DNA from: an uncultured Acidimicrobiaceae bacterium
GTDB taxonomy: Bacteria > Actinomycetota > Acidimicrobiia > Acidimicrobiales > RAAP-2
Length of the DNA: 64,000 nt
Reading direction: 5' to 3'
NCBI GenBank assembly: GCA_963829235.1
Contig: CAWHIF010000007.1
Span: 67,723-131,722 of the forward strand
The position numbers were made by a program, and so were the translations under genes. The notes under the pieces were generated by a model. The model did not search any database. It had not been told where the DNA came from and saw only the letters and a list, made by a program, of their open reading frames with translations. Positions 768 to 35,060 of the stretch are shown in pieces; positions within the stretch are counted from its first letter, which is position 1; each line of letters begins with the position of its first letter.

Positions 768-811
768 CGAGCAGCGGCGCTTCGGCGATCTGGCACCGCA
801 CGATCCGCGCT

Positions 812-1040
812 GCTAGGTTCGGGCCTCTCAGTACATGCAGCACGTTGGGGAAGCCGGTCGAAGTCCGGCGCTGGTCCGCAACCGTAGGTGACGACGCCAT
901 CAGTCCGTCACGAGCCGGGATACCACCGCACTGCACCAGTGAGTCCATACCCGTCGAGAAACGCGGCAAGGACTCGGTCGGTCACGGACCCTCGTGGGTG
1001 TTGCGGCTTCCGGGTCATTGCCCTGGAAGCGAGGAACCAT
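812..1040 (+). promoter_or_regulatory. cobalamin (B12) riboswitch-like leader with an RBS-sequestering hairpin
   Basis: GGTTC lies at 816-820. The core GGGGAAGCCGGTCGAAGTCCGGCGCTGGTCCGCAACCGTAGG (about 847-888) fits the GGGAA..CCGGUGnAAnUCCGG.GCnG..CCGCnACnGUA pattern. A GTGACG/CGTCAC hairpin is followed by a B12-box-like GAGCCGGGATACCACC (911-926). GCTTCCGGG (1006-1014) can pair with CCCTGGAAGC (1021-1030), which covers the RBS GGAAGCGAGGAA in front of ATG 1044. Confidence 0.75.
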
Positions 1041-1043
1041 CCC

Positions 1044-2391
1044 ATGTCCACCAAGCGCATCTTTGCGTCAGCAGCCCTCGGGGCCTGTCTGACGGTCGCT
1101 GTTGTCGCGGGACCGGCAACGGCACATGCGGCCGGCACGCCGGCGACCACCCCCCTGCCCGACGCTTCCCCAGGTCACCTCGGCCCTGAACGGGGCCGGC
1201 TGGTTGGCCGGCCAACTCGACCCGGCAGGCGACGTCCCCGCCGGGACAACACCTGATCTCGCCGCCACCGCCAACGTGGCGCTCGCCCTGGCCAGCACGG
1301 GAACCGACCCGGGTGCCGCCCATCGGGCCCTCGCCTACCTCGAATCCCACGTGAACGGCTACGTCCACGTCGACGGAAGCGACGGACCCGGCCAGCTGGC
1401 CCTGCTCATCCTCGACGTCCATGCCCTGGGCGGGAACCCGAGGTCGTTCGGGGGGACCGATCTGGTCTCCCGCCTGCTGGCCACCGAGCGGACGTCCGGT
1501 GCCGACAAGGGCCTGTTCGGAGCCCAGGACCCGACCTACGACGGTGCCTACCGTCAAGGTCTGGCTCTCGCCGCCCTGGCCGGCGCCGGCGTGTCGAGCC
1601 AGGCGCAGGTGGGATCGGCGGAAAACTGGCTCCTCGGACAACAGTGCCCGGACGGAGGATGGACCAGCTTCATCACCTCCGACAATCCGTGCACCGGCAA
1701 TCCGGCCGACTTCGAGGGCCCGGACACCAACTCGACGGCCCTCGCCATCCAGGGTCTTTCGGCCCAGGGCGTCCTCGGGTCCACGGCCGCCGGCAAGGCG
1801 GCCGCCTTCCTACGGGGTGCGCAGGACAGCGACGGCGGCTGGGGATACGAACCCGGCACCGCCCGCGCTCCGGGCTCGACGGACCCAGATTCGACGGCAC
1901 TGGTCATCCAGGCGATTCTGGCGCTCGGCCAGTCCCCGTCGGCCGTCACCTTCGACAGGGGAAAGGCCAACCCCATCTCGGCCCTGCTCTCATTCCAGCT
2001 GACGTCGGGATCCGGCAAGGGCGCATTCCGCTACCCCGGCAGTACCGCCCCCAACCTCCTGGCCACCTATCAGGCCGTTCCGGCCGCGGCCTCGGTCAAG
2101 CTCCCGTTCAACCTCGCCGTCACGACGTCGTCACTCCGGAACGGTGCCGTCGGCGTCCCCTACTCGGCCACGCTGTCCGCCCGCGGTGGCAACGGTCCCC
2201 ACACCTGGCAGTTGGTCGGTGGCTCGGCGTTGCCGGCAGGTCTGGTCCTCACCCGTGGTTCCGGTGTCATCTCGGGCAAGCCGAAGCACTCGGGAACGAC
2301 GAGGTTCACGGTGGAGGTGGTCGACACCGAGACGACGACCGTTCCCCACACCCAGGACATCGCCTGGAAGGTGCTCTCGATCTCCGTTTGA
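1044..2391 (+). CDS. secreted prenyltransferase/squalene-cyclase-repeat (alpha/alpha toroid) protein with a C-terminal Ig-like (He_PIG-type) domain; an apparent frameshift separates the signal peptide from the mature part
   Basis: The signal peptide MSTKRIFASAALGACLTVAVVAGPATAHA (ATG 1044, behind an RBS) is in a different frame from ORF 1102..2391. The frames switch near the C6 run at 1150-1155. The mature part has QxxDGGW-type repeats (QQCPDGGW, AQDSDGGWGY). The C-terminus reads GVPYSATLSARGGNGPHTWQLVGGSALPAGLVLTRGSGVISGKP. Confidence 0.8.
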
Positions 2392-4632: not shown

Positions 4633-4836
4633 GTCGTCAGTTTCGCAGCCCGGCCGGGGACGGCCACGAAGTCATCGGCCGGAAGGCGACCGGGCCCGAT
4701 CCGCCCGGCTGCACGGGCGGGGTCGGGCCCGGAGATCCGCACACCGGCTCTGGTACCATCGCTTCTTCCGACCGTGGCGGTCCCACCGGATGGCTCCGGC
4801 GGTTCCGTCAACGCAGGCAGAAAGGTCGACCAGGCA

Positions 4837-5953: not shown

Positions 5954-6526
5954 TTACCGCCTGAGCGTTGTCGACTCGAAGGACCAACCGGGGGCGGTGC
6001 GTCCTGTCGCCGACAGCTCCTTGGGCTCGCGCCTTCTCCCCGACACCGACGTGGGTCCGGCCGCGTCGACCTGGGCCCGGTCGCGGTCGCCGGTGCGGAA
6101 CAGGACGCGATCGAGCATCTGGTACTGCACCACCCACAGGGTTCCGTAGGCGGCGATGTTCGCCGTCAGCACGGCCACGGTGTGGCTCCAGTGACTCCAC
6201 CCTGCGGTATGGCTCGCCATCATTCCGACGGCCAAGGTCGAAACCACGAGTCCGGTGCACGACAGTGCACAGAACGGCACGATCTGGCCGAACAGGGATG
6301 GCCGGCCGGTGGAGCTCCATACCCATCTCCGATTGAGCTCGAACGACGGCACCGTACCGACCGCGGTGGCAATGACGTTCGACCACGTGGCCGGAAGATC
6401 GACCAGGCCGACGAGGATGCCCAGGACGACCAGGCTCGTGGCCGTGGCCACGACGGACACCGCGGAGTACTTCATCAACCGGATGACGGTGGCGCGCCGG
6501 ATCGACCGATTCAGTCGCCGGATCAT
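5954..6526 (-). CDS. GtrA-family membrane protein
   Basis: The product starts MIRRLNRSIRRATVIRLMKYSAVSVVATATSLVVL and contains FELNRRWVW. It has four hydrophobic segments. The rest of the 512-aa track ORF upstream of this Met is Pro/Arg-rich noise. Confidence 0.85.
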   Translation of the reverse strand: MIRRLNRSIRRATVIRLMKYSAVSVVATATSLVVLGILVGLVDLPATWSNVIATAVGTVPSFELNRRWVWSSTGRPSLFGQIVPFCALSCTGLVVSTLAVGMMASHTAGWSHWSHTVAVLTANIAAYGTLWVVQYQMLDRVLFRTGDRDRAQVDAAGPTSVSGRRREPKELSATGRTAPGWSFESTTLRR

Positions 6527-6801
6527 GTGGGCGACGTGAGGTCGTAGACCGTTTGGCCGCCGATCGTCTTCGTGGTGAAGTGGGCCTCGACCCAGCTGGT
6601 GATGGCCGCGTCGCTGTTGGCGCCTCCCCCGCCACCCGGAGCGCCTCCGCCGCCGGCCCGGCCGGGACCACCCAACGTGGAGACGGCGGGACCGTCCGCC
6701 CACCCCGTGCAGCGGCGGCCGGAGGAGGGGCGTGTTCCGCAGCCATGGGCTGGGAGGAGGGGGGACGGGCGGCGGCGACACGGTGATGGACATGACGGCA
6801 T
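6523..6801 (-). CDS. small ORF or gene remnant with a tail like the C-terminus of family-39 (PMT/ArnT-like) glycosyltransferases
   Basis: Its TGA overlaps the GtrA ATG (ATGA at 6523-6526). The tail GGGGAPGGGGGANSDAAITSWVEAHFTTKTIGGQTVYDLT resembles the extreme C-terminus I associate with actinobacterial GT39 proteins. There is no membrane domain upstream. Confidence 0.4.
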   Translation of the reverse strand: MPSCPSPCRRRPSPLLPAHGCGTRPSSGRRCTGWADGPAVSTLGGPGRAGGGGAPGGGGGANSDAAITSWVEAHFTTKTIGGQTVYDLTSPT

Positions 6802-6950
6802 CCTCGGATCTGCTGCTGGGAGTGCGCTGGGGACGGGCTGGGTGGCGAGTAGGACCCGTCGGGGCCCGTCGACCCTGTGCGTGTCGGCGTGCAGGCATCC
6901 TGGGTCCAGTGGTAAGCCAAGACCTCACCATCCACCCAAGAGGAGGCAGC

Positions 6951-7796
6951 GTGCGGTGCGGACTGGTACTGGCCGGAGGGGGCGTCGCCGGCATCGCCTG
7001 GGAGCTCGGCGTCCTCCGTGGCATCGGGGACGCGGACACCGAGTTGCAGTCGGACGTCATCGCCGCCGACGTGGTGGTGGGAACGTCGGCCGGCTCAGCT
7101 GTCGGGGCGCAAATCACCAGCGGGACGGCCATCGAGGCCCTGTATGCGGCCCAGCTCGACGAGATCTCGTACGAGATCGAGGTCGATGTGGACCTCGAGG
7201 AGCTCATGACCCGATTCGTGGCCATCACCAGCGGGGCACAGGGCGCCGAGGACATGCGGCGGCGTATCGGTGCCCTTGCCCTCGATACGCCGACCGTCGG
7301 TGAGGCCGTTCGGCGCGCCGTCATCGCCGCCCGGCTGCCGGAACCATCGTGGCCGGACCGGAAGCTCCTCGTGACGGCCGTCGACGCGCACTCGGGTGCA
7401 CTGACCGTCTTCACCAAGGAGTCGGGCGTCGAACTGGCCGACGCGGTGGCGGCCAGCTGCGCCGTGCCCGGCGTCTGGCCACCGGTGACCATCGGTGGGC
7501 ACCGCTACATCGACGGAGGGGTTCGATCGGGCAGCAACGCCGACCTGGCCGTCGGCTGCGAGCGGGTGCTCGTGATCACCCCCTCGCGGGCCGATGCGCC
7601 GCAGCCCTGGGGGAACCTCGATGACGAGATCCATCGACTGGGACCGGCGGTCGTCCACGTCATCTCCGCCGATGTGGCGTCGATCACCGCGTTCGGCACC
7701 AACCCGCTCTCTCCGGCCGTCCGAGGGCCCTCCGCCCTCGCCGGGCGGGCCGTGGGCCGGGCCGCCGCAGCCGACCTCGCCGCCTTCTGGAGCTGA
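6951..7796 (+). CDS. patatin-like phospholipase
   Basis: GTG 6951 lies 4 nt after AGGAGG. Motifs present are LAGGGVAGIAW (oxyanion GGxR-type region), GTSAGS (GxSxG) and YIDGGV (catalytic Asp). Confidence 0.85.
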   Translation: MRCGLVLAGGGVAGIAWELGVLRGIGDADTELQSDVIAADVVVGTSAGSAVGAQITSGTAIEALYAAQLDEISYEIEVDVDLEELMTRFVAITSGAQGAEDMRRRIGALALDTPTVGEAVRRAVIAARLPEPSWPDRKLLVTAVDAHSGALTVFTKESGVELADAVAASCAVPGVWPPVTIGGHRYIDGGVRSGSNADLAVGCERVLVITPSRADAPQPWGNLDDEIHRLGPAVVHVISADVASITAFGTNPLSPAVRGPSALAGRAVGRAAAADLAAFWS

Positions 7797-7961
7797 TTGC
7801 CGCGCCGGGCGGCCGCCGGGGCCGATGTCGACGCCGCGGAGGTCCTCCGATGGGAGGCCCGTATCGCCGACGGGGAGGTGCGAGACCGGGCCGACCGGCA
7901 CGGTCCAAAAACCATTAACTCGATGGGTAGACTCGGGTTTCTCACGTATCCGGGAGGCTCG

Positions 7962-8839
7962 ATGACCACCAACGAGATCGCCGCCGCTACAAAGACCAGG
8001 TCCGGCAGCTGACTCCCCGCATCGGGGCCGAAATCAGCGGGGTGGACCTGGCCACGGAATTGCCCGACGAGACCCGGGCAGAGATCCGGACTGCCCTCCT
8101 CGCCCACCGGGTCGTCTTCTTTCGCGCCCAGCATCTCGACGCCGAAGGCCAGCTCGCCTTCGCCCGGGGGCTCGGTCCGCTCACCCGGGCCCATCCGACA
8201 CTTCCGGCGAGCAGCGTGAGCCGGCACTGTTCGACCTGGACTCAAAGCGGGCCCGGCCGCCAACCACTGGCACAGACTGAATTCGTCGAGCAACCGCCGA
8301 CGTTCTCGATACTCCGGGCCGTCGTCATCCCCGGATCGGCGGTGACACACTGTGGGCCACACGGTGGCCGGCTACGCTGACCCTGGCCCAGCACCGGGCC
8401 CTGGCCAACGAGCTCCGTGCCGTGCAGACCAACGGCAGGACTACGGCGGTCGACGTGGCGAAGGCCAAAGGACGGCTCCGGCCCGAGGAGCTCGAGCACC
8501 TGAAGACCTTCGTCTCGACCGTCAATGAAACGGAACACGGTGGTACGAACCATCCCGAAACCGGAGAGCCTCGCTCTGCTCGGAGGCTTCGCCCGACGCC
8601 TGGTGGGCCATCAGTCGGCCGGCGGTCGACATCCTGCGACCTTGCAGGCATACGTACGCGCCCCGAGAACACCGTGCGATGGCATGGCGTGCCGTCGACG
8701 TCGCCTTCTGGTACAACCGTTCGACGCAGCACGATGCCATCTACGACTACGGGACCCGGCGCCGGCATGTCGGCGCACCACCACCGCCGGCGTCATCCCC
8801 GTCGGGCTCGACGGTCGCCCGAGCATCGCGCTGAGGTGA
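7962..8839 (+). pseudogene. TauD/TfdA-family Fe(II)/2-oxoglutarate dioxygenase, heavily frameshifted
   Basis: ATG 7962 follows GGGAGG. Family-typical pieces are scattered over all three frames. They include LTPRIGAEISGVDLATELPDETRAEIRTALLAHRVVFFRAQHLDAEGQLAFARGLGPLTRAHPTLPAS, ANHWHTD-like, FVEQPPTFSILRAVVIPG, TEHGGTNHPETGEPRSA, LLGGFARRLVGHQSAGG, ENTVRWHG, DVAFWYNRSTQHDAIYDYGTRRRH and TTAGVIPVGLDGRPSIALR. Confidence 0.75.
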
Positions 8840-8920
8840 CCCGGCGGACTACTACCGGGAGAACTGACGGGACGGACAGGACCGGGTCGGCGCCGGCCGC
8901 ACGGGCCATCTGGCTGGCGC

Positions 8921-9253
8921 TCAGCCCCGTCCACCACCCGACCGAGCCTTACCTGCTCGGACACGCGGCGTCACGATCACGTTCACGCTGAAAGGTCGCA
9001 CGCACGCGTCAGCGACTGGGCGGCTGGCGTGGGGACCGAACTGTCGAACCAGGGAGATGAACCACTCCGGCACCGCCGGCGACGCGGCGCCGACGAGGGC
9101 CACATCGGCTTCATTGGCCAGGGTCAGATCCACGAGATCCTGGAGCTGTCCGTCCGTCAGAGGGAAGACCTCCCCGGTGAACCGGTTCCTGAACACCGTC
9201 GGATGACCGGCTCCGATCTGTGGATAGAGAAAAGCCGCGATCGCACGAGGCAT
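8921..9253 (-). CDS. hypothetical protein, possibly the 3' part of a disrupted larger gene
   Basis: The product MPRAIAAFLYPQIGAGHPTVFRNRFTGEVFPLTDGQLQDLVDLTLANEADVALVGAASPAVPEWFISLVRQFG has coding-like G/C third positions. I recognise no family. Coding-like stretches continue upstream to about 9691 in other frames. Confidence 0.3.
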   Translation of the reverse strand: MPRAIAAFLYPQIGAGHPTVFRNRFTGEVFPLTDGQLQDLVDLTLANEADVALVGAASPAVPEWFISLVRQFGPHASRPVADACVRPFSVNVIVTPRVRAGKARSGGGRG

Positions 9254-9712
9254 AGAGATGGACGAGAGCTTCCACAGCTGGTCCGACCGCAGTCGGTGAG
9301 CACGTCCCGCTCGTCCAATCCGAGCAGCGCGAATCCGAACCCGTCGGTCCCAGCAGGCTGGCACAACCCGGCCGTCGAGAGCGCCGGGTGGACCCCCAGT
9401 CCATCAGGAGTCGTTCCGTCCGCTTCAGATGGTCGAGGAGTCGCCCGAGCAGATGCGGCACGGCATCGGCATGCCGGTCGTACAGGAGTCGGAGGGCACG
9501 TCCTCGCCGACGCTCCCTCCCGTATCGACGTGATGCGACTGCCTTCGACCAGTGTCCACCACGATCACCTCCACCGTCCCGGAGCTTGTCCGCTCCAGGA
9601 GAGTGAGGCGATGGTACAAACGGCAGCGGGCCCCGCGGCGCCAGGTGACCGCCCCGGGGCCCAGACGGGTCCCAGCCCCGGTCGTGCCCATCCCCCTCCG
9701 GCGAGCCTGGCA

Positions 9713-11720: not shown

Positions 11721-12824
11721 TCATTCTGCGATCGACGAATGGTCCGGACTGCGAATCGCGATTGCATCCCGCCCACCTCGTTTGACCTGATACAGAGCGA
11801 AGTCGGCATCGTCCAACAGGTGCTCGACGGTGGGGGTCGAATGATCGAGGCCGCCGACGCCGACACTGAGGGTCACGGCTACCTCGACGGCGGCGGAGAG
11901 ATCCTGACGGATCCGTTCGGCAACCTCTGCGGCTGCGGAGACGTCCGTATCCGGAAGGAGGAGGGCGAATTCGTCGCCGCCGAACCGACTGGCGAGATCG
12001 AAGGATCGACTGTTCCGGCGAAGGACGGACCCGGTGCTGGCCAGCACATGGTCGCCGACGACGTGACCGTAGGCGTCGTTCACCGCCTTGAACTGATCCA
12101 CATCGATCATCAAGAGGCTGAGGGGGCTTCGATTGCGGACTGATCGGGCGATCTCCTGCTCCATCCGCTGACGAAGGACACGCCGGACGGCGCATCCCGT
12201 GAGCTCGTCGATGGATGCCATGTCGGCCAGCGCGGCCTGGAGTCGTGCCCCGTGCTGCTCGATCCGCGTGCGATTGACCGAGGCGGCGACGGTGAGTGCC
12301 GAGGCGCCGGCGAGGGCTGCGAAGAGCAGAAAGGCACGGCCCGGAGAGCTGTCGAGGCGGCCATCGGCGAGGGGTACCAGCGCCACCGCCACCATGGTGG
12401 AGATTCCACAGAGGGCGGCCGCCTTCGGTGTGAACATGAGGGTGCCGAAGATCAGGGGAAGGAAGAGCAGGACGAGGAGCGGGCTGTTCAAGCCGAGGTC
12501 GAGCATGGCCACGGCGCCGACCCCGAAAGCGGACAGTGCCGTCCACGTGACGGAATACGTGGCGCACCACGGCTTCGACGCCACGGCCGGGGCCACGGCC
12601 ATGCCGATGATGGCGAGAACGAGCCACACGCCGACGACGACCCACAGGATGCCGCGATGCGGGCCATCGGGTGTCAGCGCCAGATAGCCGACGACGACGA
12701 ATGTCTCAGCCAGGAAGATGCCGAAGCCGATGCGAATGTGGGTGAGCCAGAAGCTCCGCCATGCGACCTGATCCGCGTCCCCGCGCAGCGCGCCGTCGAG
12801 CAGGTTCACGTCGTTCGAATCCAT
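11721..12824 (-). CDS. membrane-anchored diguanylate cyclase (GGDEF)
   Basis: It has five to six N-terminal TM segments. The GGDEF domain reads DELTGCAVRR...LLMIDVDQFKAVNDAYGHVVGDHVL...RFGGDEFALLLPDT. Confidence 0.92.
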   Translation of the reverse strand: MDSNDVNLLDGALRGDADQVAWRSFWLTHIRIGFGIFLAETFVVVGYLALTPDGPHRGILWVVVGVWLVLAIIGMAVAPAVASKPWCATYSVTWTALSAFGVGAVAMLDLGLNSPLLVLLFLPLIFGTLMFTPKAAALCGISTMVAVALVPLADGRLDSSPGRAFLLFAALAGASALTVAASVNRTRIEQHGARLQAALADMASIDELTGCAVRRVLRQRMEQEIARSVRNRSPLSLLMIDVDQFKAVNDAYGHVVGDHVLASTGSVLRRNSRSFDLASRFGGDEFALLLPDTDVSAAAEVAERIRQDLSAAVEVAVTLSVGVGGLDHSTPTVEHLLDDADFALYQVKRGGRDAIAIRSPDHSSIAE

Positions 12825-15842: not shown

Positions 15843-17051
15843 GTGGATGGAACCGATGCCGAGAGACCTGAGATCACCTTCCCGGAGGGCTTTGTCTGGG
15901 GCACGGCGACCGCGGCCCACCAGATAGAGGGCGGCAACGTCAACAATGACTGGTGGGCCTGGGAGCACAATCCCAATTCGGGATGTGCCGAGTCGAGTGG
16001 CGACGCCTGTGATTCGCTCCACCGATGGGCCGAGGATGTCCAGCTCGTCGCGGACATGGGGCTCCAGGCGTATCGGTTCTCCCTCGAGTGGAGTCGCATC
16101 GAGCCCGCCGAGGGCGAGTTCTCGATCGCTGCGCTCGACTACTACCGCCGCATCTGTGCAGCCTGCCGCGAGCGCGGCATCTCCCCGGTCGTGACGTTCC
16201 ATCACTTCACGACCCCGACCTGGCTGGCCGATCGAGGAGGGTGGGAGGCCGCGGACGCTGCCGATGTCTTCGCCCGTTTCGTCTCTCGGGCGGCAACCCA
16301 CCTCGGGGATCTGATCGGTTGGGCCTGCACGATCAACGAGCTCAACCTCATCGGCGTCATGGGCTACGCCCTCGGGTCATCTCCGCCGGGGGTGAAGGAC
16401 GACTTCGTCCGACATCTCGCAGTGAACGAGACCATCGTCCGGGCACACCGGCTCGCCGTCGACGCCCTTCGATCCGGCCCGGGGAGCTATCCCGTGGGCC
16501 TGACACTGTCGATGGACGAGATGGTGGCCGACCCGGGCGGAGAGGAAGTGCTCGAAGCCGCCCAGGAGATTCTCGAGGACCGGTTCATGCGGGGAGCCGA
16601 GGGTGACGACTTCATCGGGGTCCAGTGCTATTCGCGTGTGCACTTCGGACCAGACGGCCAGGCCCCCAACGAACCCGGAGTCCCTGTCACCCAAATGGGC
16701 TACGAGTACTGGCCGCAAGGAGTTGAACACTGTGCCCGGCGAGCCTCGGCAGTATCCGGGCTCCCTGTCCTCCTGACCGAGAGTGGGATCGCCACCGAGG
16801 ACGACACCGAGCGCATTGCCTACATCTCCGAGGCTCTTCGGGGCGTCCGGCGCGCCCTCGATGACGGCGTGGACATCCGCGGGTACTTCGTCTGGAGCCT
16901 GCTCGACAACTTCGAGTGGTCGAACGGATTTGCACCCCGGTTCGGCCTCCACAGTGTCGATCACACGACCTTCGCGAGGTATCCCAAGCCCAGCGCATCG
17001 TGGTACGGCGCGGTGGCCAGAGCAAACGGCTTGCCGGCGCCCCCGGCCTGA
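15843..17051 (+). CDS. GH1 beta-glucosidase
   Basis: Family motifs are FPEGFVWGTATAAHQIEGG, YRFSLEWSRIEP, TINELN (acid/base Glu) and LLTESGIA (nucleophile Glu; Ser replaces the usual Asn of TENG). Confidence 0.9.
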   Translation: MDGTDAERPEITFPEGFVWGTATAAHQIEGGNVNNDWWAWEHNPNSGCAESSGDACDSLHRWAEDVQLVADMGLQAYRFSLEWSRIEPAEGEFSIAALDYYRRICAACRERGISPVVTFHHFTTPTWLADRGGWEAADAADVFARFVSRAATHLGDLIGWACTINELNLIGVMGYALGSSPPGVKDDFVRHLAVNETIVRAHRLAVDALRSGPGSYPVGLTLSMDEMVADPGGEEVLEAAQEILEDRFMRGAEGDDFIGVQCYSRVHFGPDGQAPNEPGVPVTQMGYEYWPQGVEHCARRASAVSGLPVLLTESGIATEDDTERIAYISEALRGVRRALDDGVDIRGYFVWSLLDNFEWSNGFAPRFGLHSVDHTTFARYPKPSASWYGAVARANGLPAPPA

Positions 17052-17275
17052 GGCGCACTCACAGCACGGTGCGACGGGACGGCGATCCCGGCGCGGCTCG
17101 AGCCGCACGGAAGTCGAGCCTCCGTGGGCCTCGCGCCAGCTGTGGGAGCAGTGGCGGCGACAACGTCGATCCCCGTCATCGTGCCCGGACAGAGCGTTAA
17201 CATCGGTCCACCACCAGGTCCCCACCCAGGCTCGATCGAGTCGAGGACCGATGCTGGGGTTCGGGAGGAACCTTC

Positions 17276-24838: not shown

Positions 24839-27800
24839 ATGAGTGCGTTGGCGGGAACAAACCATCCCAGACGACGCCTGGCGTCGAGCTTGTGCGCCGT
24901 CGGACTGCTGTTGACCGGCGTCCTCTCCCTTTCGGCGGTGGTGCTGCCCGCCCAAGAGGCCGGGGCGGCGACGGATACGGTGACGAACTGCTCTGGGGAT
25001 CCCGGCACGGCAGGTTCCTTGCCCAACGAGATCGCGGGTGCAGGCGCGGGGGACACCATCGTGTTCTCGCTGTCCTGTTCGACGATCACCCTCACGTCGA
25101 CGATCGTGATCTCGCAGGACCTGACAATCAACGGGCCTGGACAAACCAGCCTGGCCGTCGATGGCGGTGGAACCACGGAGCCTTTCCAAGTCTCGAGCGG
25201 CACCGTGTCCATCTCTGGTCTGACCATCCAGAATGGAAGCGGAACAGATGGTGGTGGCATCGAGAACAGCGGCAACCTCACGGTGAGCAACAGCTCCCTC
25301 GCCAGCAACTCGGCAACAGGTGGCGGCGGTGCCATCGACAACAGCGGCGGCGGAACCCTGACTGTGACCAGCTCAACGCTGTCGGGGAACTCGGCGGGAA
25401 CCGGTGGTGGCGCCATCGACAACAGCGGCAGCGGAACCCTTACTGTGACCAGCTCAACGCTGTCGGGGAACTCAGCCGGGACGGACGGGGGTGCCATCGA
25501 CAACCTGGGCACGGTCACAGTAGAAGAGAGCACCTTGTCGGGGAATACGGCCGGGAACTACGGCGGTGGCATCGAGAGCAACGACGCCACCATGACTGTC
25601 GACAGCTCCACTGTGTCGGGAAACAGCGCCATCAGTGACGGCGGCGGCGTCGACATCGAGGACGACGACGCCCACGGAATGTCAACGATCGACAACAGCA
25701 CCGTGACGAGCAACGGCGCGCCCTTCGGCGGTGGGATCCAGGACGATCAAGGTCCGCTCACGATCGGGGCCACCATCGTGGCCGAGAGCACGCCGGACAC
25801 CGACTGTGCCGTGAATGCCAGTGTTACCGACCAGGGCTACAACATCGACGACGACGGGACGTGCGCATTCACCGGCCCCGGCAACAATTCGGGCACGCTT
25901 GACGGTACCCTCGGATCGTTGGCCAACAACGGGGGGCCGACCCAGACCGTCGCCCTCGAGCCTGGGAGCCCCGCCAGCGGCCTCGTGACCGCCGCGCTGT
26001 GCCCGGCCACCGACCAGCGCGGTGTGACGATCATCACCACTCCATGTGATGCCGGCGCCTACGACACCAACGGAGCCTCCATCTCCTCCGTCACCGTCAC
26101 CGGGAGCCTGGCCGCCCCGACGGTGACCATCTCGGGAACCGGATTCGGCAGCGAGTCCGAGCTCGGTTCAGCGACGCCACCGCCCGGCTGCCCAACGACC
26201 GGCTCGGACTATGACAATTTCTACTACTTCTCCTTCTCCGATGTAACCGCGGGGTGGCAGGCCGGACAAGGTGGGAACTGCACCGGGGTGTCCATCTCGG
26301 GATACTCGGGCACCGGGATCACCTTCACGTTCGGCAGCGGCTACGGCAACGACTACAACTCCAACGAATTCGGTTCCCTCGGCTACGGTGACAGCTTTCA
26401 GATGAGCGTGCTGGGCGACACCTACAACGGCTCGATCGCCCCATTCTCACCGACGCCGACCATCACCTCGGTCACCATCACAGGTACCCTGGCCACCCCG
26501 ACGGTGACCGTGTCGGGGTCCGGGTTCGGCATGCAGTCCGACCTTCTGCCACCGGTGCCTGCAGGCTGCTCGAATACCGGCTCGGACTATGACAACAACT
26601 TCTACCTCACCGATGGCTGGGGGGCTGGAGAGGGGATCGTAGGACCCGAGGACTGCACAGGGGTGTTCGTCTCGTCGTACACAAGCAACCAGATCACCTT
26701 CACCTTCGGGAACGGCTACGGGAGCGGCAACGGCGAATACGGCGGTCTGTCCCCGGGCGACAGTTTCCAGATGCACGTGCTCGGCGCCACCTACGATGGC
26801 ACCGTCCCGGTCCTGCCGCCGAGCATCGACGGGGTCACCTTCGGCGGCAATCCCACCAATCCGACGGTGACCGTGTCGGGGTCCGGTTTCGGCGCCCTGG
26901 CCGACCTCGGGACGGCGGCCCCCAGCGGTAACGGCGGCTCCGACTACGGCAACAACTTCTACTTCTCCGATAACTCGAGCGGTGCCTTCGGAGCATGGCA
27001 GGCCGGACAGGCAGGCGACACGATCGGGCTGGTCATCTCGGTGTACTCGGACGACCAGATCACCTTCACCTTCGACGGCGATTACTCCGTGTTCGGCCCG
27101 GTGTCGGACGGCGACAGCTTCTCGGTGAGGCTGTTCGGGGTCACCTACAACGGCACGGCCTCGCTCGGTACCGGCTACACCTGTGCCGGCTTCGGGTCGA
27201 CCAGCTTCCCGGTGGTGGTGTCCGAATCGCCGGCCCCGCCGGCCAGCATCGACGACGGCGGGACCTTCCAGACGGCCCCGGCTGCCCAGCTGACCATCCC
27301 GGCGACGGTCATCAACGACTTCATCGGCGACGGGGCCACCTCGCTCACCATCGCCTCCCAGACCACCGCCATCGACGGCCTCAACGCGGTCGGGGGGTCG
27401 CCGAGCGGAGCAGTCGATCCCAGCACCGAGTCGGGCTCGGCCTCCAACCTGCCCCTCAGCCACACCCTGGCGGCCGACACCCCGTTCACCTACGACACCA
27501 GCTACAACCCGGTCACCTTCCAGACCGGTCCGGGGACCGGTCAGGTCTTCCTCACCCCCGGGGCCATCTCGGCCGAGGTCACCTTGGTCATCGGCGGGAC
27601 CCCGACCCCCGAGTCCATCTCCTGTACGCCCCCCTCCGGGGTGGCCGCTCTCGGGACGACCACGGTCAACGCGCCCGCGGCCGCCCCCACCTTCCAGGTG
27701 CCCCCGTCCACCCCGCCCCTCCAGAACCAGGTCAGCGCGGGCACCGACGGCGGATGGGGGGCCACCATCGCCAATACGTCCAGGGCCTCGGTCACCGGGC

Positions 27801-28639
27801 TGTCGGCCCGCGTGCGGGTCACCGACGGCCACGGCACGCCCACCTTCGACCTGGCCGGCATGGCCGCCTCGGGCACCACCTGTGCCAACGCCGGGTCGGG
27901 CAAGCTGACCTGTTCCATCGGGACCCTGGCCGCCGGGGCCGCTGACACCCTCGACGTGCTGGTGGACACCAACGGTCTCCCCGACGGCGCCACCATCACC
28001 GGCTCGGCCACGGTGACCTCGTCCAATGCCGGGACCCAGGCCACCACCCTCGGGGCCATCGGGGTGGTGGTGGTCGAGGGCGGCGACGGCACGAAGGCGG
28101 TGGCCGCCCCCGGGATCGCCCTCGTGAGCACCAAGGCCACCCTGAAGAAGGCCAAGGCCTCGGTGTCGCTCACCCTGCCCAAGGCCAAGATCAAGGTCAA
28201 AAAGAGGGTGGGGGAGGTCGGTGGGACCGGCCCCTCCGCCTCGGGCACCATCACCATCAGCCCCCCGCCGGTGGCGGTGACCCTCGAGTCGCTGTCCCCC
28301 TCGGCCGAGCCGGCCCTGTGCCCGCCCACCGGGTCGACCAAGTGCGAGGGCAACATCATCCAGGTGTTCGGCAACTTCTCGCTCTACACCAGCAAGCTCA
28401 ACCCCATCGTGGCCACGGTCAAGTTCTTCTACGGCACGAAGGTCCCGGCCGGCACGGTCTACTTCTTGAAGCCCAACGGCAAGACCGTGGACAAGCTGTC
28501 CACCTGCAAGAAGACGGCCAGCGGCTACGACACCCCGTGCCTGTCCGGCGCCGAGAAGGACCTCGGGACCACCGGCAACAAGTACGCCGAGGACACCGTC
28601 TACTTCACCGGGAACGACCCGGCCATGGGGCGCCGCTGA
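24839..28639 (+). CDS. large secreted beta-helix surface protein (Pmp/choice-of-anchor-Q-like repeats, triple about 125-aa repeat, DUF11-like module)
   Basis: The signal peptide ends in AQEAGAA. The N-terminal part reads TVTNCSGDPGTAGSLPNEIAGAGAGDTIVF and carries GGGAIDNSG..LTVTSSTLSGNSA repeats ending in NNGGPTQTVAL...DQRG...CDAGAYD. Three about 125-aa repeats span 26081-27170. The DUF11-like stretch reads TIANTSRASVTGL...TLDVLVD. Confidence 0.9.
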   Translation: MSALAGTNHPRRRLASSLCAVGLLLTGVLSLSAVVLPAQEAGAATDTVTNCSGDPGTAGSLPNEIAGAGAGDTIVFSLSCSTITLTSTIVISQDLTINGPGQTSLAVDGGGTTEPFQVSSGTVSISGLTIQNGSGTDGGGIENSGNLTVSNSSLASNSATGGGGAIDNSGGGTLTVTSSTLSGNSAGTGGGAIDNSGSGTLTVTSSTLSGNSAGTDGGAIDNLGTVTVEESTLSGNTAGNYGGGIESNDATMTVDSSTVSGNSAISDGGGVDIEDDDAHGMSTIDNSTVTSNGAPFGGGIQDDQGPLTIGATIVAESTPDTDCAVNASVTDQGYNIDDDGTCAFTGPGNNSGTLDGTLGSLANNGGPTQTVALEPGSPASGLVTAALCPATDQRGVTIITTPCDAGAYDTNGASISSVTVTGSLAAPTVTISGTGFGSESELGSATPPPGCPTTGSDYDNFYYFSFSDVTAGWQAGQGGNCTGVSISGYSGTGITFTFGSGYGNDYNSNEFGSLGYGDSFQMSVLGDTYNGSIAPFSPTPTITSVTITGTLATPTVTVSGSGFGMQSDLLPPVPAGCSNTGSDYDNNFYLTDGWGAGEGIVGPEDCTGVFVSSYTSNQITFTFGNGYGSGNGEYGGLSPGDSFQMHVLGATYDGTVPVLPPSIDGVTFGGNPTNPTVTVSGSGFGALADLGTAAPSGNGGSDYGNNFYFSDNSSGAFGAWQAGQAGDTIGLVISVYSDDQITFTFDGDYSVFGPVSDGDSFSVRLFGVTYNGTASLGTGYTCAGFGSTSFPVVVSESPAPPASIDDGGTFQTAPAAQLTIPATVINDFIGDGATSLTIASQTTAIDGLNAVGGSPSGAVDPSTESGSASNLPLSHTLAADTPFTYDTSYNPVTFQTGPGTGQVFLTPGAISAEVTLVIGGTPTPESISCTPPSGVAALGTTTVNAPAAAPTFQVPPSTPPLQNQVSAGTDGGWGATIANTSRASVTGLSARVRVTDGHGTPTFDLAGMAASGTTCANAGSGKLTCSIGTLAAGAADTLDVLVDTNGLPDGATITGSATVTSSNAGTQATTLGAIGVVVVEGGDGTKAVAAPGIALVSTKATLKKAKASVSLTLPKAKIKVKKRVGEVGGTGPSASGTITISPPPVAVTLESLSPSAEPALCPPTGSTKCEGNIIQVFGNFSLYTSKLNPIVATVKFFYGTKVPAGTVYFLKPNGKTVDKLSTCKKTASGYDTPCLSGAEKDLGTTGNKYAEDTVYFTGNDPAMGRR
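25331..25492 (+). repeat. two near-identical 81-bp (27-codon) tandem units inside the beta-helix region
   Basis: The unit gccatcgacaacagcggc(g/a)gcggaaccct(g/t)actgtgaccagctcaacgctgtcggggaactc... starts at 25331 and 25412. A third, divergent unit starts at 25493. The first about 65 nt of the two copies differ at only about 4 positions. Confidence 0.85.
26081..27170 (+). repeat. three tandem about 125-aa protein repeats of unrecognised family
   Basis: The repeats start at about 26081, 26462 and 26825. The shared pattern is (I)xxVT(V/I/F)xGxxxxPTVT(I/V)SG(T/S)GFG...GSDY(D/G)NxFY(F/L)...(W)xAGxxG...C/ITGVxxSxYxxxxITFTFxxxYG...GDSFxxxxxGxTYNG. Confidence 0.8.
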
Positions 28640-28781: not shown

Positions 28782-29405
28782 ATGGGGAAGAACCAGGAGG
28801 CGGGCGGAACCGACGCTCAGCATATCGAGCGGTCTCTGTTGGACCCCGACGCGTTCGCCATCCTCTTCGATCGGCACGCAGTGCCTTTGCACCGCTACAT
28901 CGTCAGCAGGGTCGGTCGCCGTGACGCCGCAGATCTCGTCGGCGAAACATTTTCGACCGCGTTCCGTTCCCGGAGGTCATACGACCTGGAGCGATCTGAC
29001 GCCCGCCCATGGCTCTTCGGTATCGCGACAAACATCTCCCATCACTACTGGCGCACCGAGGGTCGCAGGGCCCGGAGCGAGGGGGCGGTCTCCCCCGGCA
29101 GCGACGTTGACGACCAAGGAGAGCAGGTTCTCGCCAGGATCTTCTTCGAAAGCCTGCGCGCACCCATCGGCAGGGCACTGGGCCAGATCGATGGCGCCGC
29201 GCTCGACGTCCTGCTTCTGGTGGCCGGACCGGAGCTCAGTTATGAAGAGGTCGCAACCGCCCTTGGCATTCCCATCGGCACCGTCCGGTCGCGCTTGTCC
29301 CGCGCCCGAAGGCAGCTTCGAGAACTTCTTGGCGACTCCGGGCAATACCTGGATGAACTGTCGTCAGTCGAACGGGCTCCGATGGCAAAGAGGGGTTCAC
29401 CATGA
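28782..29405 (+). CDS. ECF-type RNA polymerase sigma factor
   Basis: Region 2 reads FAILFDRHAVPLHRYIVSRVGRRDAADLVGETFSTAF...ARPWLFGIATN. Region 4 reads LSYEEVATALGIPIGTVRSRLSRARRQL. ATG 28782 was chosen within ORF 28698..29405. Confidence 0.88.
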   Translation: MGKNQEAGGTDAQHIERSLLDPDAFAILFDRHAVPLHRYIVSRVGRRDAADLVGETFSTAFRSRRSYDLERSDARPWLFGIATNISHHYWRTEGRRARSEGAVSPGSDVDDQGEQVLARIFFESLRAPIGRALGQIDGAALDVLLLVAGPELSYEEVATALGIPIGTVRSRLSRARRQLRELLGDSGQYLDELSSVERAPMAKRGSP

Positions 29406-30775
29406 GCACCGAACTGGATTTGGTCCACGACCTCATGAGAGACGTGGAGATACAAGAGGACGAGATGTTGTCTGCTCGTTCAATTCTCGACGCCGCAATC
29501 AGAGTGGAGGTCGATGGGCGCGATCGAGCCGAGACGGAACCGGAGCCCCGACGGGCGAGACCCCGAACGTCAGGTCGCATTGCCCGTTGGTCGATCGGAG
29601 TTGCAGCCGTCGCGGCGGCATTTCTCCTGGTGCTCGAGCTTATCCCGGCGTCGAAGTCCACCGCCCGCCTGTCAGTTGCTGCGGCCCAGCTGTCCCGACT
29701 GGTCGACTCGGTCAAGCCACTCCCCCCGCTCCGCGCCGGACAGTGGTCGTCATATCAGCTTCACGGGGACCTGACGGCAACGGTTGACATCGGCACCACT
29801 CCCCCAACGGACGCCGCTGCGTCCATCCCGATCGGGGTTACCGAGTGGTCGAACTCGACCGGCGCGTCATGCACGTCACAGCAACTGGGCACGGCCTCGT
29901 TCGCCAACCCCGCGAATGCCCAGGCATGGCACGCGATGGGTCTGATCGACACGCCGGCCAACCAACCGGCAACCGGCTGCGACGGCGACACCGGACCCCT
30001 CGCCGATACCGGGGCCACGCTGCCGGCCATCGACGGGTCGAGCATTACTCACAGCCCGTCGACCCTCGTGGCGCAGCTGGAAGCAGGAACCACGGGAATC
30101 TCACGGATCGACAGTGTCGGTGGCGGGGATCCCTCCCAAGAGGGAGCCTTCATCCGGCTGACCTACCTTCTTGTCGGCCCGATCACCGGAAGCTGGCCCG
30201 GGCTGGGCCAGGAGCTTCTCGAGGCCATGGCCCATCTTCCCGGGGTGGTGGCGCTGGGAAAGAGTACCTCCCACTCAGGACGGCAAGGCCTGGCCTTCAC
30301 CTCCCGATCTCAGCCGGGCGCGGTACTGCCGGTTGTGGTGCTCGACCCGAATTCCGGCTCGCTGCTCGAGGCCCGCGATCTGAACATGTCGGTACTCACT
30401 TCGGAGGCGGAGGATTTCATCGGGGGCTCGTCGTCGCCACTGTTCACCTACGGCGGGGGTTACGGACTCACCGCACAGTGGATCGACCCGATTGCACCTC
30501 CTGCGGTCGTCGGACAAGCCTCGTTGCCCAACTGGATCGACAACATCCATATCGTCGACGCAGTGGCCAAACCGACCACGACCCAGGCGGAAGTCTCGCC
30601 CGTCGTGCAGCCGTTTTTGGCTGCGGGGGACACCTTTGCGGCTGCGGGGGAAGGTATGGGTGGCAGGGTGCTCGGGTACGACATCACCGTTGTGGGTACC
30701 ACGGCCGACGAAGCCGCTGTCGTTGAAGCGCTGACATCCTCCGGTCTGTTCGAGAGCGTGACGGTCAGGATGTGA
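29402..30775 (+). CDS. membrane-anchored putative anti-sigma factor / ECF-associated extracytoplasmic protein
   Basis: It shares an ATGA overlap with the ECF gene. It has a short cytoplasmic N-terminus, one TM helix (WSIGVAAVAAAFLLVLELI) and an extracytoplasmic domain of about 370 aa. It resembles the ECF-adjacent actinobacterial proteins I know as the CU044_5270 type. That family call is tentative. Confidence 0.7.
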   Translation: MSTELDLVHDLMRDVEIQEDEMLSARSILDAAIRVEVDGRDRAETEPEPRRARPRTSGRIARWSIGVAAVAAAFLLVLELIPASKSTARLSVAAAQLSRLVDSVKPLPPLRAGQWSSYQLHGDLTATVDIGTTPPTDAAASIPIGVTEWSNSTGASCTSQQLGTASFANPANAQAWHAMGLIDTPANQPATGCDGDTGPLADTGATLPAIDGSSITHSPSTLVAQLEAGTTGISRIDSVGGGDPSQEGAFIRLTYLLVGPITGSWPGLGQELLEAMAHLPGVVALGKSTSHSGRQGLAFTSRSQPGAVLPVVVLDPNSGSLLEARDLNMSVLTSEAEDFIGGSSSPLFTYGGGYGLTAQWIDPIAPPAVVGQASLPNWIDNIHIVDAVAKPTTTQAEVSPVVQPFLAAGDTFAAAGEGMGGRVLGYDITVVGTTADEAAVVEALTSSGLFESVTVRM

Positions 30776-30839
30776 ACCGATACGGTTGTGGCCAGCGCGA
30801 GTGTGTGGCATCGGGACGTCGGCGAACACAGGGAATGTC

Positions 30840-32480
30840 GTGACCTCGGTGGAGCGGATCAATCCACGCCAAGACGACACCCGGAACCGTCGCCGTCTGG
30901 TGGGCCGGAGCGTCCTGATCGGCTTGTCCGTCCTGGGTGTCTTGTCCCTCGGGGGCGTGGCCTACGCCTACTACATCACCCACGATCTCAACCGGGTCAC
31001 GGTCAGGGGACTGCACGGTCCACTGACAACCGGATCTGAGGCCGGAAGCGAGAACATTCTGATGATGGGCTCCACCTCACGGTGTGCCCTCACCGTCCAG
31101 AACCCGGCGTACGGCTTGTGCTCCCAAGGGGTGAACGGTGTCAACAGCGACGTGATCATGATCCTCCACGCCGATCCGACAACCCATCAGTTGGCGCTCC
31201 TGTCCATCCCGCGGGATCTGTTCATCCCGAACGCCCGCGCCGAAGGGGCCAACAAGATCGATGCCGGCCTGTACGAGGGCCCGACCCAGTTGGTGGCAGC
31301 CATCGAAGAGGACTTCGGGATTCCCATTCAACACACCGTCGAGGTCAACTTCGATCAGTTCGCCAACGTGGTCACCGCACTGGGCGGTATCAACATGCGA
31401 TTTCCGATGTCGGTGTTCGATGCCAACTCGGGTTTGAACGTGCAGGCGGCGCCCTGTGTCCACCTCGACGGCACCCAGGCCCTCCAGGTGGTCCGGGCCC
31501 GTGAGCTCCAGTACGACGACGACCCGAGCACCGACGGCACTGACGCCGAGCTCTGGCCCAAGGAAGGCCTGAGCGACCTGGCCCGGATCCGCCGGGACCA
31601 CGAGTTTCTCCGCGTGCTGGCAACTGCCGTGTCCAAGAAGGGGCTCGGAAACCCGATCACCGATGTCGACCTCATCAACTCGGTCAAGAGCGACCTGACC
31701 TTCGACACCGACTGGCCGGTCAGCGACATGGAAAACCTGGTGCTCAACTTCCACTCCGTGGACATCGACTCGGTGCCGCAGCTGACCTTGCCGGTGTCCG
31801 TGGTCTACGACCCCGATGGGCCGCCGAACACCGGGGACTACGAGTATGAAGGAAGTGCGGGCTTCGGCTACGGCGATGTGGAATTCCCATCAGAGGCACA
31901 GGATCAATCCGCCATCGACCAGGTCCTCGACATCAAGGCGAAGACCGACTCCATGACCGGGAAGCCGCTGCCGTCGCCGGCGACGGTGACCGTTTCGGTG
32001 CAGAACGGTACCGGCACGTACGACCAGGCCACCGATACAGCCTCTGCGCTGGCAGGCCTCGGGTTCAAGGCAACTGCGGCGGGAGACGTCACTCCGGTGG
32101 GCGATCTGTCCGAGACCGTCGTCTCTTACGGCTCTCGGGCTCCGGCTGCAGAGGCCGCCGCTGAAGCGGTGACCCGCTCGATGTCAGGAGCGGTGATCAT
32201 GGCCTATGACCCCAGCCAGGTTACGGCAGGGGCCGAGGTGACCGTGGTGACGGGAACTCAGTTCGCGGTGAACACGGCCCCGCCCGTCACCCCGACGTCG
32301 ACACCGACGACCGGTGCCGGCAGCGCCACCTCGACGACTCCATCCGCCACATCGACAACGACCACGACCAACCCGAACATTGCCGAACCGTCGGCCAGCA
32401 ACGCCCGACCTCAGCCCTGGGACCCCCGGGCGTGTTCCGCCGGAACCACGCCGACCGCACCGGTGGCGAACCAGACGTAG
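30840..32480 (+). CDS. LCP (LytR-CpsA-Psr) family protein with a LytR_C-like domain and Thr/Pro-rich tail
   Basis: It has one TM helix. The LCP core reads ENILMMGSTS...NSDVIMILH...LLSIPRDL...IDAGLYEGPTQLVAAIEEDFGIPIQHTVEVNF..F.NVVTALGGINM. The LytR_C-like part reads TVSVQNGTGTYDQATDTASALAGLGF. The start is uncertain: GTG 30840 or TTG 30786. Confidence 0.9.
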   Translation: MTSVERINPRQDDTRNRRRLVGRSVLIGLSVLGVLSLGGVAYAYYITHDLNRVTVRGLHGPLTTGSEAGSENILMMGSTSRCALTVQNPAYGLCSQGVNGVNSDVIMILHADPTTHQLALLSIPRDLFIPNARAEGANKIDAGLYEGPTQLVAAIEEDFGIPIQHTVEVNFDQFANVVTALGGINMRFPMSVFDANSGLNVQAAPCVHLDGTQALQVVRARELQYDDDPSTDGTDAELWPKEGLSDLARIRRDHEFLRVLATAVSKKGLGNPITDVDLINSVKSDLTFDTDWPVSDMENLVLNFHSVDIDSVPQLTLPVSVVYDPDGPPNTGDYEYEGSAGFGYGDVEFPSEAQDQSAIDQVLDIKAKTDSMTGKPLPSPATVTVSVQNGTGTYDQATDTASALAGLGFKATAAGDVTPVGDLSETVVSYGSRAPAAEAAAEAVTRSMSGAVIMAYDPSQVTAGAEVTVVTGTQFAVNTAPPVTPTSTPTTGAGSATSTTPSATSTTTTTNPNIAEPSASNARPQPWDPRACSAGTTPTAPVANQT

Positions 32481-34558: not shown

Positions 34559-35060
34559 CCTTATGGCACTACCCGGTGCACCAGACTCTCTCTCACCGAC
34601 AGATGCCCGAAGCGCCAGCCCGGGAGCGGAACTGCCAACCCCGTGCGCCTGTGGACTCGAGTATCCGATCGAGATCGTTCCCGCCTGTTTGCCCGCCCGT
34701 GCGGGAGATCGGCTCGCCCGTCGGCCCGACGAACGGTAGCTGGATCAGCCCCCGCCGGCCGCTGCCACGGCGGTCACAGCGGACCAACCGCTCGGGGCTC
34801 CGAGGTTCGCTTCGGTGTAGCCGACTGGGCCGGCGTGGTGCAGACGAAGTAGATAGACCCTTGTGCCGAACAGTCGACCCGTGCGACGATTGACAGAGCA
34901 GCACGGATCGCACCGAACCACGTTCACATTCCCAAAGAGTGACGGGAACGCCTCTCGAGAGTGCGAGCCTCGAACATTTGGGACTTTGGGTACTTGAAAC
35001 GGTCCGCACGGTGGCCGCGCGGTGGAGATCTCGGGCAGGAGTGCGGTGGAAGGGGCTTCG

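Follow-up and report, generated by a model that had tools for sequence, protein, structure and literature searches.

A Cobalamin Riboswitch Upstream of a Secreted Alpha/Alpha-Toroid Gene in Acidimicrobiales: Probable Part of a Split, Transcobalamin-Like System of Corrinoid Capture

Introduction

The question considered here arises from a stretch of 64,000 nucleotides (hereafter the window, meaning this stretch at its full length) from an uncultured Acidimicrobiaceae bacterium (assembly GCA_963829235.1, contig CAWHIF010000007.1): Why should a cobalamin (vitamin B12) riboswitch stand in front of a gene for a secreted protein that joins an alpha/alpha toroid to an immunoglobulin (Ig)-like module? 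The answer at which we arrive is that the toroid probably supplies the alpha-like half in a split capture pair for corrinoids, analogous to transcobalamin and feeding a transporter of the energy-coupling factor (ECF) type. We favor this reading because, in related loci, the riboswitch and the toroid gene precede genes for an SCO2322-like protein and for ECF components, and because the structural model of the SCO2322-like protein matches the beta domain of transcobalamin.

The concept itself is known, for it was predicted computationally in 2007, and models of the SCO2321 and SCO2322 families are already held by NCBIfam and Pfam. Burroughs, Balaji, Iyer, and Aravind (2007; PMC1796856) recognized transcobalamin's C-terminal domain as a soluble-ligand-binding beta-grasp (SLBB) domain, described secreted bacterial SLBB proteins, encoded within CbiO-like/CbiQ-like operons, that are either fused to alpha/alpha toroids and Ig domains or located next to them, and proposed B12 scavenging in Gram-positive bacteria together with lateral transfer to animals. 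In Lactobacillus sakei, the genes Lsa1836-1840 encode the S, A-A', and T components of an ECF transporter together with Lsa1839, which is secreted and transcobalamin-beta-like, and Lsa1840, a toroid of the alpha-like kind (bioRxiv 10.1101/864751), while ECF modules lie behind cobalamin riboswitches in acI Actinobacteria (PMC5301498). Our search of the literature found no functional or experimental study of the SCO2321 and SCO2322 families, of SCO2321-2325, or of DUF4430. The initial annotation of the locus, which had been made from the sequence alone, considered such a protein uncharacterized in Actinomycetota; this holds with regard to experiments, but the idea was published in 2007 and the parts have been described in L. 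sakei. What is new here is the strict pairing with the riboswitch across a whole order, the attribution, on structural and model-based grounds, of a transcobalamin-beta fold to the SCO2322 family, and the existence of solo toroid-Ig paralogues that are separately regulated.

Identity of the Leader

The Rfam scan covered the whole window and returned a single match, that of the cobalamin riboswitch family RF00174 (33.8 bits, E = 7.3e-5, against a gathering score of 31.5 bits). It falls in the intergenic leader of 276 nt at 768-1043 of the plus strand, lies on the same strand as the toroid gene, and ends about 100 nt 5' of the ATG. Both the class of riboswitch and the leader length given in the initial annotation are thereby borne out, and the core and B12-box-like sequences that it quoted were located at positions 847-888 and 912-927. 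The features of the aptamer region are the following:

802 to 945, plus strand: match to the RF00174 cobalamin riboswitch in Rfam, above the gathering score, with the covariation-backed aptamer at about 836-935

847 to 888, plus strand: invariant aptamer core GGGGAAGCCGGTCGAAGTCCGGCGCTGGTCCGCAACCGTAGG, almost all positions of which are invariant in 57 leaders

912 to 927, plus strand: B12-box region GAGCCGGGATACCACC, aligned to the RF00174 consensus gAGCCAGGAGACCuGCC and conserved in the leader alignment

The counts of pairing, covariation, and motifs given in this work are based on an alignment of 57 leader sequences, called A4. In A4 the helices of the aptamer are 96% paired, with compensatory changes in 11 pairs; these values were reached by none of 500 shuffles, and shifted registers drop to 25-47% paired. 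The P1 helix, formed by 836-848 with 923-935, is 88% paired and covaries in eight of its ten pairs, fitting better in this register than in that of the Rfam alignment. P6 of the window aptamer is a plain hairpin at the place where the Rfam consensus has an insertion of 62 nt, so that the aptamer is of a compact form, devoid of peripheral extension on P6. Folding the window leader whole, as a single sequence, was uninformative (z = 0.19), and the alignment was required. One candidate for the kissing-loop partner of L5, the segment CGGAC at 986-990, which is complementary to the GUCCG of L5, was dropped for its lack of conservation in A4. Taken together, scan and covariation make it practically certain that the leader is a genuine cobalamin riboswitch.

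Conservation of the Leader and the ECF Operon

A search with one genome per species produced 80 loci encoding relatives of the toroid gene, nearly all of them in metagenome-assembled genomes (MAGs) of Acidimicrobiales/Acidimicrobiaceae. With the window leader as nhmmer query, a homologous leader was found directly 5' of the toroid gene in every one of these loci (80/80), the matches mostly spanning the whole ~245 nt and including the region 3' of the aptamer. Of the 18 orthologous leaders tested, 12 attain the gathering score of RF00174, and the six that do not still have the invariant core. The association between riboswitch and toroid gene, which the initial annotation had noted at this one locus, is far beyond chance and universal across the 80 loci.

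Gene neighborhoods were counted in the 65 loci having at least 7.5 kb of downstream sequence. SCO2322-like and/or ECF genes follow the toroid gene in 38 of them: 27 have both kinds of gene, 8 only the SCO2322-like gene, and 3 only ECF genes; the other 27 loci carry the toroid gene solo. The neighborhood of the type described by Burroughs et al., namely toroid and SLBB protein with a CbiQ/CbiO ECF transporter, is thus found in these 38 related loci and not in the window, and the next gene supplies a predicted transcobalamin-beta-like domain in 35 of the 65. In many of the more distant relatives the order of the operon is riboswitch, toroid, SCO2322-like protein, EcfT(CbiQ), EcfA-A', and EcfS, the neighbors being recognized by Pfam and NCBIfam as CbiQ, two ABC_tran domains (a fused double ATPase), and SCO2322 (PF28005; NF040672). 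The S component, a membrane protein of ~270 aa, is recognized as Pfam ECF_trnsprt in 2 of the 14 members searched, and its comparison with PDB sequences yielded only spurious lactate-oxidase matches. Separate ECF operons carry their own copy of the same leader (locus L018 at 4672-4749, L075 at 16972-17118, and also L076), and the complete chromosome OY969923.1 possesses both a solo copy of the He_PIG type (L012) and an operon copy (L058). The toroid gene is solo both in the window and in its closest relatives, the next gene being of the NUDIX type.

The make-up of this operon bears on the identity of the ligand, which instead of a complete corrinoid might be cobalt, a chelated metal, heme, or another tetrapyrrole, with the riboswitch coupling the supply of cobalt or precursors to B12 status. 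The T component is CbiQ-like, and cobalt ECF transporters such as CbiMNQO are classic targets of B12 riboswitches. Moreover, heme uptake is the function reported for the operon of L. sakei that has these same parts (10.1101/864751), and Burroughs et al. (PMC1796856) left room for "B12 or its precursors" as well as, in archaea, for a distinct metabolite. However, the S component shows no similarity to CbiM/NikM and matches the generic, vitamin-type ECF_trnsprt family; a toroid of ~300 residues plus a transcobalamin-beta-like domain is large for a bare ion; and the 80 loci uniformly present a cobalamin riboswitch, with no metal-responsive element seen. A ligand other than a complete corrinoid seems improbable to us.

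Two further observations concern these operons. A BtuF-like protein of the Peripla_BP_2 family, which lacks a signal peptide and starts with MKIVSLLPSATEIV, is encoded in loci L083 (8756-9667) and L084 (12323-13219); its gene adjoins that of the ECF S component in several loci, and a cytoplasmic homologue of binding proteins is unusual in an ECF operon. This protein might receive the imported corrinoid. There is also a second toroid paralogue, of 624 aa and with C-terminal GYWL..GSDGGVF..GDA repeats (L085 at 7347-9221, minus strand), which is divergent from the gene of the He_PIG type, has its own cobalamin riboswitch (L010 at 9483-9560, minus strand), and lies 5' of ECF genes.

The SCO2322-Like Partner

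The SCO2322-like protein of related loci consists of a signal peptide, a globular domain of ~130 residues, a low-complexity linker, and a C-terminal membrane anchor. Its score with the model SCO2322_fam (NF040672) is 50 bits versus a cut-off of 85 bits. The structure predicted for the globular domain (predicted local distance difference test, pLDDT, ~90) has, as its first 17 PDB matches, either the beta domains of transcobalamin and intrinsic factor or the DUF4430 protein 3u7z, with template modeling (TM) scores of 0.60-0.70 versus the isolated domains and 17-20% identity to the transcobalamin chains; after these 17 the match probability falls steeply. Because this list of hits is so specific, the SCO2322 family is assigned, on the strength of the model, a transcobalamin-beta-like fold of the beta-grasp class.

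The Toroid Protein

The product of the gene behind the riboswitch is best described along the following features of the plus strand:

1044 to 1130, plus strand: signal peptide of the Sec type, 29 residues, MSTKRIFASAALGACLTVAVVAGPATAHA followed by AG, with predicted cleavage AHA|AG, from the translation; the PATAxA pattern is conserved in orthologues

1157, plus strand: single extra base that shifts the frame of 1044 into that of 1102-2391, from the alignment to loci L001, L002, and L081

1165 to 2391, plus strand: mature coding region past the frameshift, with the toroid at about 1174-2088, the He_PIG domain at about 2131-2346, and the stop codon at 2389-2391, from Pfam, AlphaFold, and Foldseek

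Pfam recognizes SQHop_cyclase_C (30.8 bits vs. a gathering score of 26.1) and, at residues 364-435, He_PIG (PF05345; 35 bits vs. 24). AlphaFold, given 111 sequences, produced a model with a mean pLDDT of 93 and a predicted TM score of 0.93, which presents a helical toroid followed by a beta-sandwich that coincides with He_PIG. The segments QQCPDGGW, GPDTNST, and DPDST are among the conserved residues of the toroid. The secreted alpha/alpha toroid with Ig-like module seen by the initial annotation therefore stands. No membrane anchor was found, the protein ending in ...DIAWKVLSISV right after He_PIG without any hydrophobic tail. The sequence LGAC at residues 12-15 was considered as the lipobox of a lipoprotein signal and rejected as the principal reading, since two orthologues have no Cys there while PATAxA is conserved.

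The best NCBIfam match of the protein is SCO2321_fam (NF053823), with 185.5 bits and E = 1.4e-54 over residues 155-353, a score under the model cut-off of 300 bits; by sequence we classify the protein as a homologue of the SCO2321 family, not an equivalog. The remark in the initial annotation that the gene is not a known B12 transporter overlooked this membership, albeit below cut-off, in a recognized ECF-linked family. Streptomyces coelicolor SCO2321 (NF053823) carries the name of a membrane protein; the window protein, by contrast, has He_PIG at its end and no anchor.

How far does the fold by itself indicate corrinoid binding? The toroid fold is indeed shared with the mammalian B12 carriers, as the initial annotation had pointed out, but this likeness is not discriminating. 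The top fold matches in PDB, retrieved with Foldseek, are class II terpene cyclases (drimenyl diphosphate synthase with E = 2e-7, MstE, and squalene-hopene cyclase, SHC), with glycoside hydrolases and prenyltransferase beta subunits coming next; transcobalamin is among the significant matches from rank 22, with E-values of 5e-5 to 2e-4 and a TM score of 0.45. The profile of the family (111 sequences) retrieves squalene-hopene cyclase from PDB sequences with E = 2.8e-15, and a phmmer search of the toroid against PDB sequences gave terpene cyclases only, without any link to B12 carriers. A beta-grasp (SLBB) domain is absent from the window protein, in which He_PIG stands in its place. The model hence confirms an alpha/alpha toroid without singling out the B12 carriers. 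Corrinoid scavenging, the role proposed in the initial annotation, is still the best-supported reading, although what supports it is genomic context, the fold argument originally offered for it being unspecific.

The same matches raise the alternative that the toroid is an extracellular enzyme or an envelope protein, of the glycoside-hydrolase-like or cyclase-like (alpha/alpha)6 class, and that its regulation by B12 is indirect. Besides the enzymes that are its best matches by structure and sequence, which comprise drimenyl diphosphate synthase, MstE, SHC, and unsaturated glucuronyl hydrolase, the alternative can draw on an invariant DPDST motif that resembles DxDDT and on the envelope genes around the window gene (GtrA, LytR_cpsA_psr), to which a PMT_2 gene in a close relative may be added. 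Yet the DxDD acid motif of SHC is replaced, its PDVDDTA aligning with PDTNSTA in the window protein, and this change from DVDD to DTNS renders cyclase chemistry unlikely. In addition, the protein has a signal peptide and isoprenoid diphosphate substrates are absent outside the cell, while the linkage that is conserved is with the ECF importer and the transcobalamin-beta-like protein rather than with envelope genes, the flanks varying from locus to locus. We consider such an enzymatic or structural role very unlikely.

The Frameshift in the Window Gene

The frame that opens with the ATG at 1044 stops at 1256, and the long open reading frame (ORF) of 1102-2391 lies in another frame. The initial annotation had bridged this interruption by a repair, and the frameshift is real in the present sequence: Around position 1157 the window reads CCCCCCTGCCCGACG where L001, L002, and L081, which have 91-96% DNA identity to it, read CCCCCCT-CCCGACG, their sequence across the region corresponding to 1150-1165 being CCCCCCTCCCGACG. 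Across the junction, orthologues of full length (446-455 aa) have TPLPTLPQVTS. Further single extra bases with respect to the same relatives are found at 287, 323, 580, and 771, so that, from the sequence, an assembly error is as likely as true decay in the form of recent inactivation.

If the frameshift at 1157 were real in the organism, only a peptide of 70 residues would be made, and the window gene would be a dead pseudogene with a relic riboswitch. This would accord with one extra base set against three close relatives that agree among themselves, and with the single-base differences at 287, 323, 580, and 771, which likewise break or touch the neighboring upstream ORF. On the other hand, apart from the extra base neither the leader nor the 1.3-kb ORF is damaged, both being 92-96% identical to their intact relatives and free of additional stops; scattered insertions of single bases are the kind of error that long-read assembly typically makes, and long reads underlie many of the related MAG assemblies. 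A dead gene is in our judgment unlikely, and the alternative would in any case be limited to the window copy, leaving the function of the family unaffected.

Promoter Motif and Expression Platform

Beyond the aptamer, the leader contains elements whose conservation suggests how the switch may operate:

811 to 819, plus strand: extended -10-like motif TGnTAnnnT (TGCTAGGTT), conserved in 50 of the 57 aligned leaders

941 to 975, plus strand: hairpin H1, GAGTCC (941-946) with GGACTC (970-975), having the invariant CCGTCGAGA in its loop, by covariation

965 to 1022, plus strand: alternative long-range helix Y, 965-977 with 1010-1022, by RNAalifold prediction and covariation

1007 to 1029, plus strand: hairpin Z, proximal to the ribosome-binding site (RBS), CTTCCGGG with CCCTGGAAG, 79-94% of alignment cells paired

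1032 to 1046, plus strand: Shine-Dalgarno sequence GAGGA (1032-1036) and ATG (1044-1046), from the sequence; the start aligns with M1 of full-length orthologues

The TGnTAnnnT motif emerged from conservation, as a scan for sigma-70 consensus promoters found nothing. It mostly ends 26-28 nt 5' of the GGGGAAG core, a nearly fixed spacing, and suggests an extended -10 element with transcription starting near 826; if so, the Rfam match would begin with ~25 nt that are promoter DNA and not RNA.

Downstream of the aptamer, H1 has 98.5% of its cells paired and compensatory changes in three pairs, including AU/GC and UA/CG exchanges, while Y has 95% of cells paired with CG/UA and AU/GC exchanges. The two compete for bases 970-975 and are mutually exclusive, with covariation behind both; Y also takes the 5' arm of Z and therefore excludes both H1 and Z, and when H1 is formed Z is able to form. 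The initial annotation had spoken of a hairpin that buries the RBS, and this is approximately correct: Z proper stops 2 nt 5' of the GAGGA Shine-Dalgarno sequence, but in the minimum-energy fold of the window leader it extends, pairing part of GAGGAAC and of the start region CCCAUGUCC. The calculated energies for the window are -47.5 kcal/mol for H1 with the extended Z versus -38.6 kcal/mol for the Y state; other leaders, folded as single sequences, adopt either the H1/Z or the Y state. No intrinsic terminator was found by a scan, and repression most likely acts at the initiation of translation. The simplest reading of the folding models is that H1 plus Z represents a closed state under translational control. 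The choice between H1 and Y would then decide whether the RBS-proximal hairpin, with its extension over Shine-Dalgarno sequence and AUG, forms, and the compact riboswitch would probably repress the secreted toroid protein when the intracellular B12 coenzyme is plentiful.

Two other conserved elements lie outside the aptamer, namely CCGTCGAGA (954-962, columns 232-240 of A4) and CTCGG (973-977), which are invariant or nearly so in the 57 leaders. They may serve in a tertiary contact or in an alternative pairing.

Evidence against Corrinoid Capture

Several results weigh against the reading of a corrinoid capture pair and have to be considered jointly. With respect to the toroid, the likeness to transcobalamin is weaker than that to terpene cyclases, the 111-sequence family profile found no B12 carriers among PDB sequences, and Pfam Cobalamin_bind (PF01122) has no match in the window protein at E up to 1. 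With respect to the partner, the E-values of its beta-domain matches are marginal, at ~1e-3; Pfam DUF4430 does not match the SCO2322-like protein; and phmmer and profile searches of PDB sequences with this protein found nothing, the link to transcobalamin having come from the fold search alone. With respect to the riboswitch, no partner of the L5 kissing loop that is conserved in the expression platform was found in A4. The window gene is, furthermore, frameshifted; neither an SCO2322-like partner nor ECF genes were found within the 64-kb window; and solo toroid genes account for 27 of the 65 loci. Finally, the sole experimental work on a similar operon reported uptake of heme, not of B12 (10.1101/864751). 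Action in trans is assumed because the window has neither partner nor ECF genes and because so many loci are solo.

A Possible Mechanism of Capture

In functional terms, the corrinoid capture pair would work as follows. When the intracellular B12 coenzyme is low, the riboswitch would permit translation; outside the cell, the secreted toroid, as the alpha-like element, and the anchored beta-grasp protein, as the beta-like element, would clasp a corrinoid in the manner of transcobalamin; and the ECF S component would then take over the corrinoid, to be imported at the expense of ATP. The copy in the window would be a stand-alone, unanchored, and separately regulated paralogue, perhaps a soluble or wall-associated capture protein, that would serve an operon located elsewhere in the genome. 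We hold the full mechanism, from a riboswitch-controlled toroid with its beta-grasp partner to corrinoid capture for ECF import, to be reasonably likely.

By analogy one may go further and imagine the solo toroid-Ig protein as a freely released "corrinophore," a counterpart of haptocorrin and intrinsic factor that would dock on the anchored SCO2322 protein. Its capture of cobamides would, as with a hemophore, take place at a distance, and docking would complete the binding site and deliver the ligand to the S component. This extension is speculative and we regard it as doubtful; if true, it would constitute the first known relay of an extracellular binding protein for an ECF transporter and a living version of the split ancestor proposed for the B12 carriers of animals.

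Comparison with Known Systems

The systems described by Burroughs et al. (2007) share with the present family a secreted toroid, often an Ig fold, a transcobalamin-beta-like partner, and operons with CbiQ and CbiO. Their study was computational, contained no riboswitch evidence, dealt mainly with Firmicutes and archaea, and found toroid and SLBB often fused, whereas here the two reside in separate genes, the SLBB domain is missed by DUF4430 and profiles, and the window copy is solo with a riboswitch. Lsa1836-1840 of L. sakei comprise the same five parts as separate genes, a likeness that we draw from their description; however, they belong to Firmicutes, have another gene order, are reported for heme uptake, and come without mention of a riboswitch.

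Transcobalamin, intrinsic factor, and haptocorrin sandwich a single cobalamin between an alpha6/alpha6 toroid and a beta-grasp domain, and the toroid fold is what they have in common with the window protein. The mammalian carriers are one polypeptide, whereas here the toroid and the beta-like domain reside on separate polypeptides without detectable sequence similarity to them, and the window protein carries He_PIG where transcobalamin has its beta domain. Their receptor is CD320 or cubilin; here it would be the ECF S component. The closest solved relatives of the toroid by sequence and fold are SHC and the other class II terpene cyclases, with which it shares QW-like repeats; in contrast to their double toroid and DxDD motif, the window protein has a single toroid and DTNS, is secreted, and is probably no cyclase.

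Among transporters, the ECF-CbrT system of Lactobacillus delbrueckii is reportedly an importer of vitamin B12 in which CbrT binds the substrate itself, without extracellular capture proteins. Like the system proposed here, it would be an ABC importer of the ECF type for cobalamin in a Gram-positive bacterium.

Other Features of the Window and Related Loci

No other B12 genes were found among the ten large ORFs examined elsewhere in the window. Upstream of the riboswitch, a stretch of 532 bp (129-660) is present in L001/L002 and absent from the otherwise 96%-identical L081/L082; the broken ORFs 225-494, 307-510, and 507-767, which have no Pfam hit, are in or near it, and the single-base differences at 287, 323, and 580 with respect to L001/L002 fall inside it. 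Farther downstream, the window has a GtrA-domain gene (5954-7492, minus strand), two convergent genes with LytR_cpsA_psr plus LytR_C (30786-32480, plus strand, and 32539-34176, minus strand), and a gene for a PKD-domain protein (35022-36881, plus strand), which suggest a cell-envelope neighborhood. For two long ORFs, 24839-28639 (plus strand, 1266 aa) and 29402-30775 (plus strand, 457 aa), Pfam gave no match at E up to 1e-5. In the related locus L004, a SAM riboswitch (RF00162, 66.8 bits) lies at 12634-12722 of the plus strand, 1.3 kb downstream of the toroid gene.

Significance

Import without extracellular binding proteins is the textbook picture of ECF transporters, and the capture of scarce B12 by Gram-positive soil bacteria is poorly known. 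The window copy adds a solo, separately regulated paralogue and no new principle. The family to which it belongs nevertheless offers a clean system for probing both a relay of binding proteins to an ECF transporter and the proposed bacterial origin of animal B12 carriers, and it is abundant in uncultured Acidimicrobiales of soil, where the exchange of B12 shapes communities.

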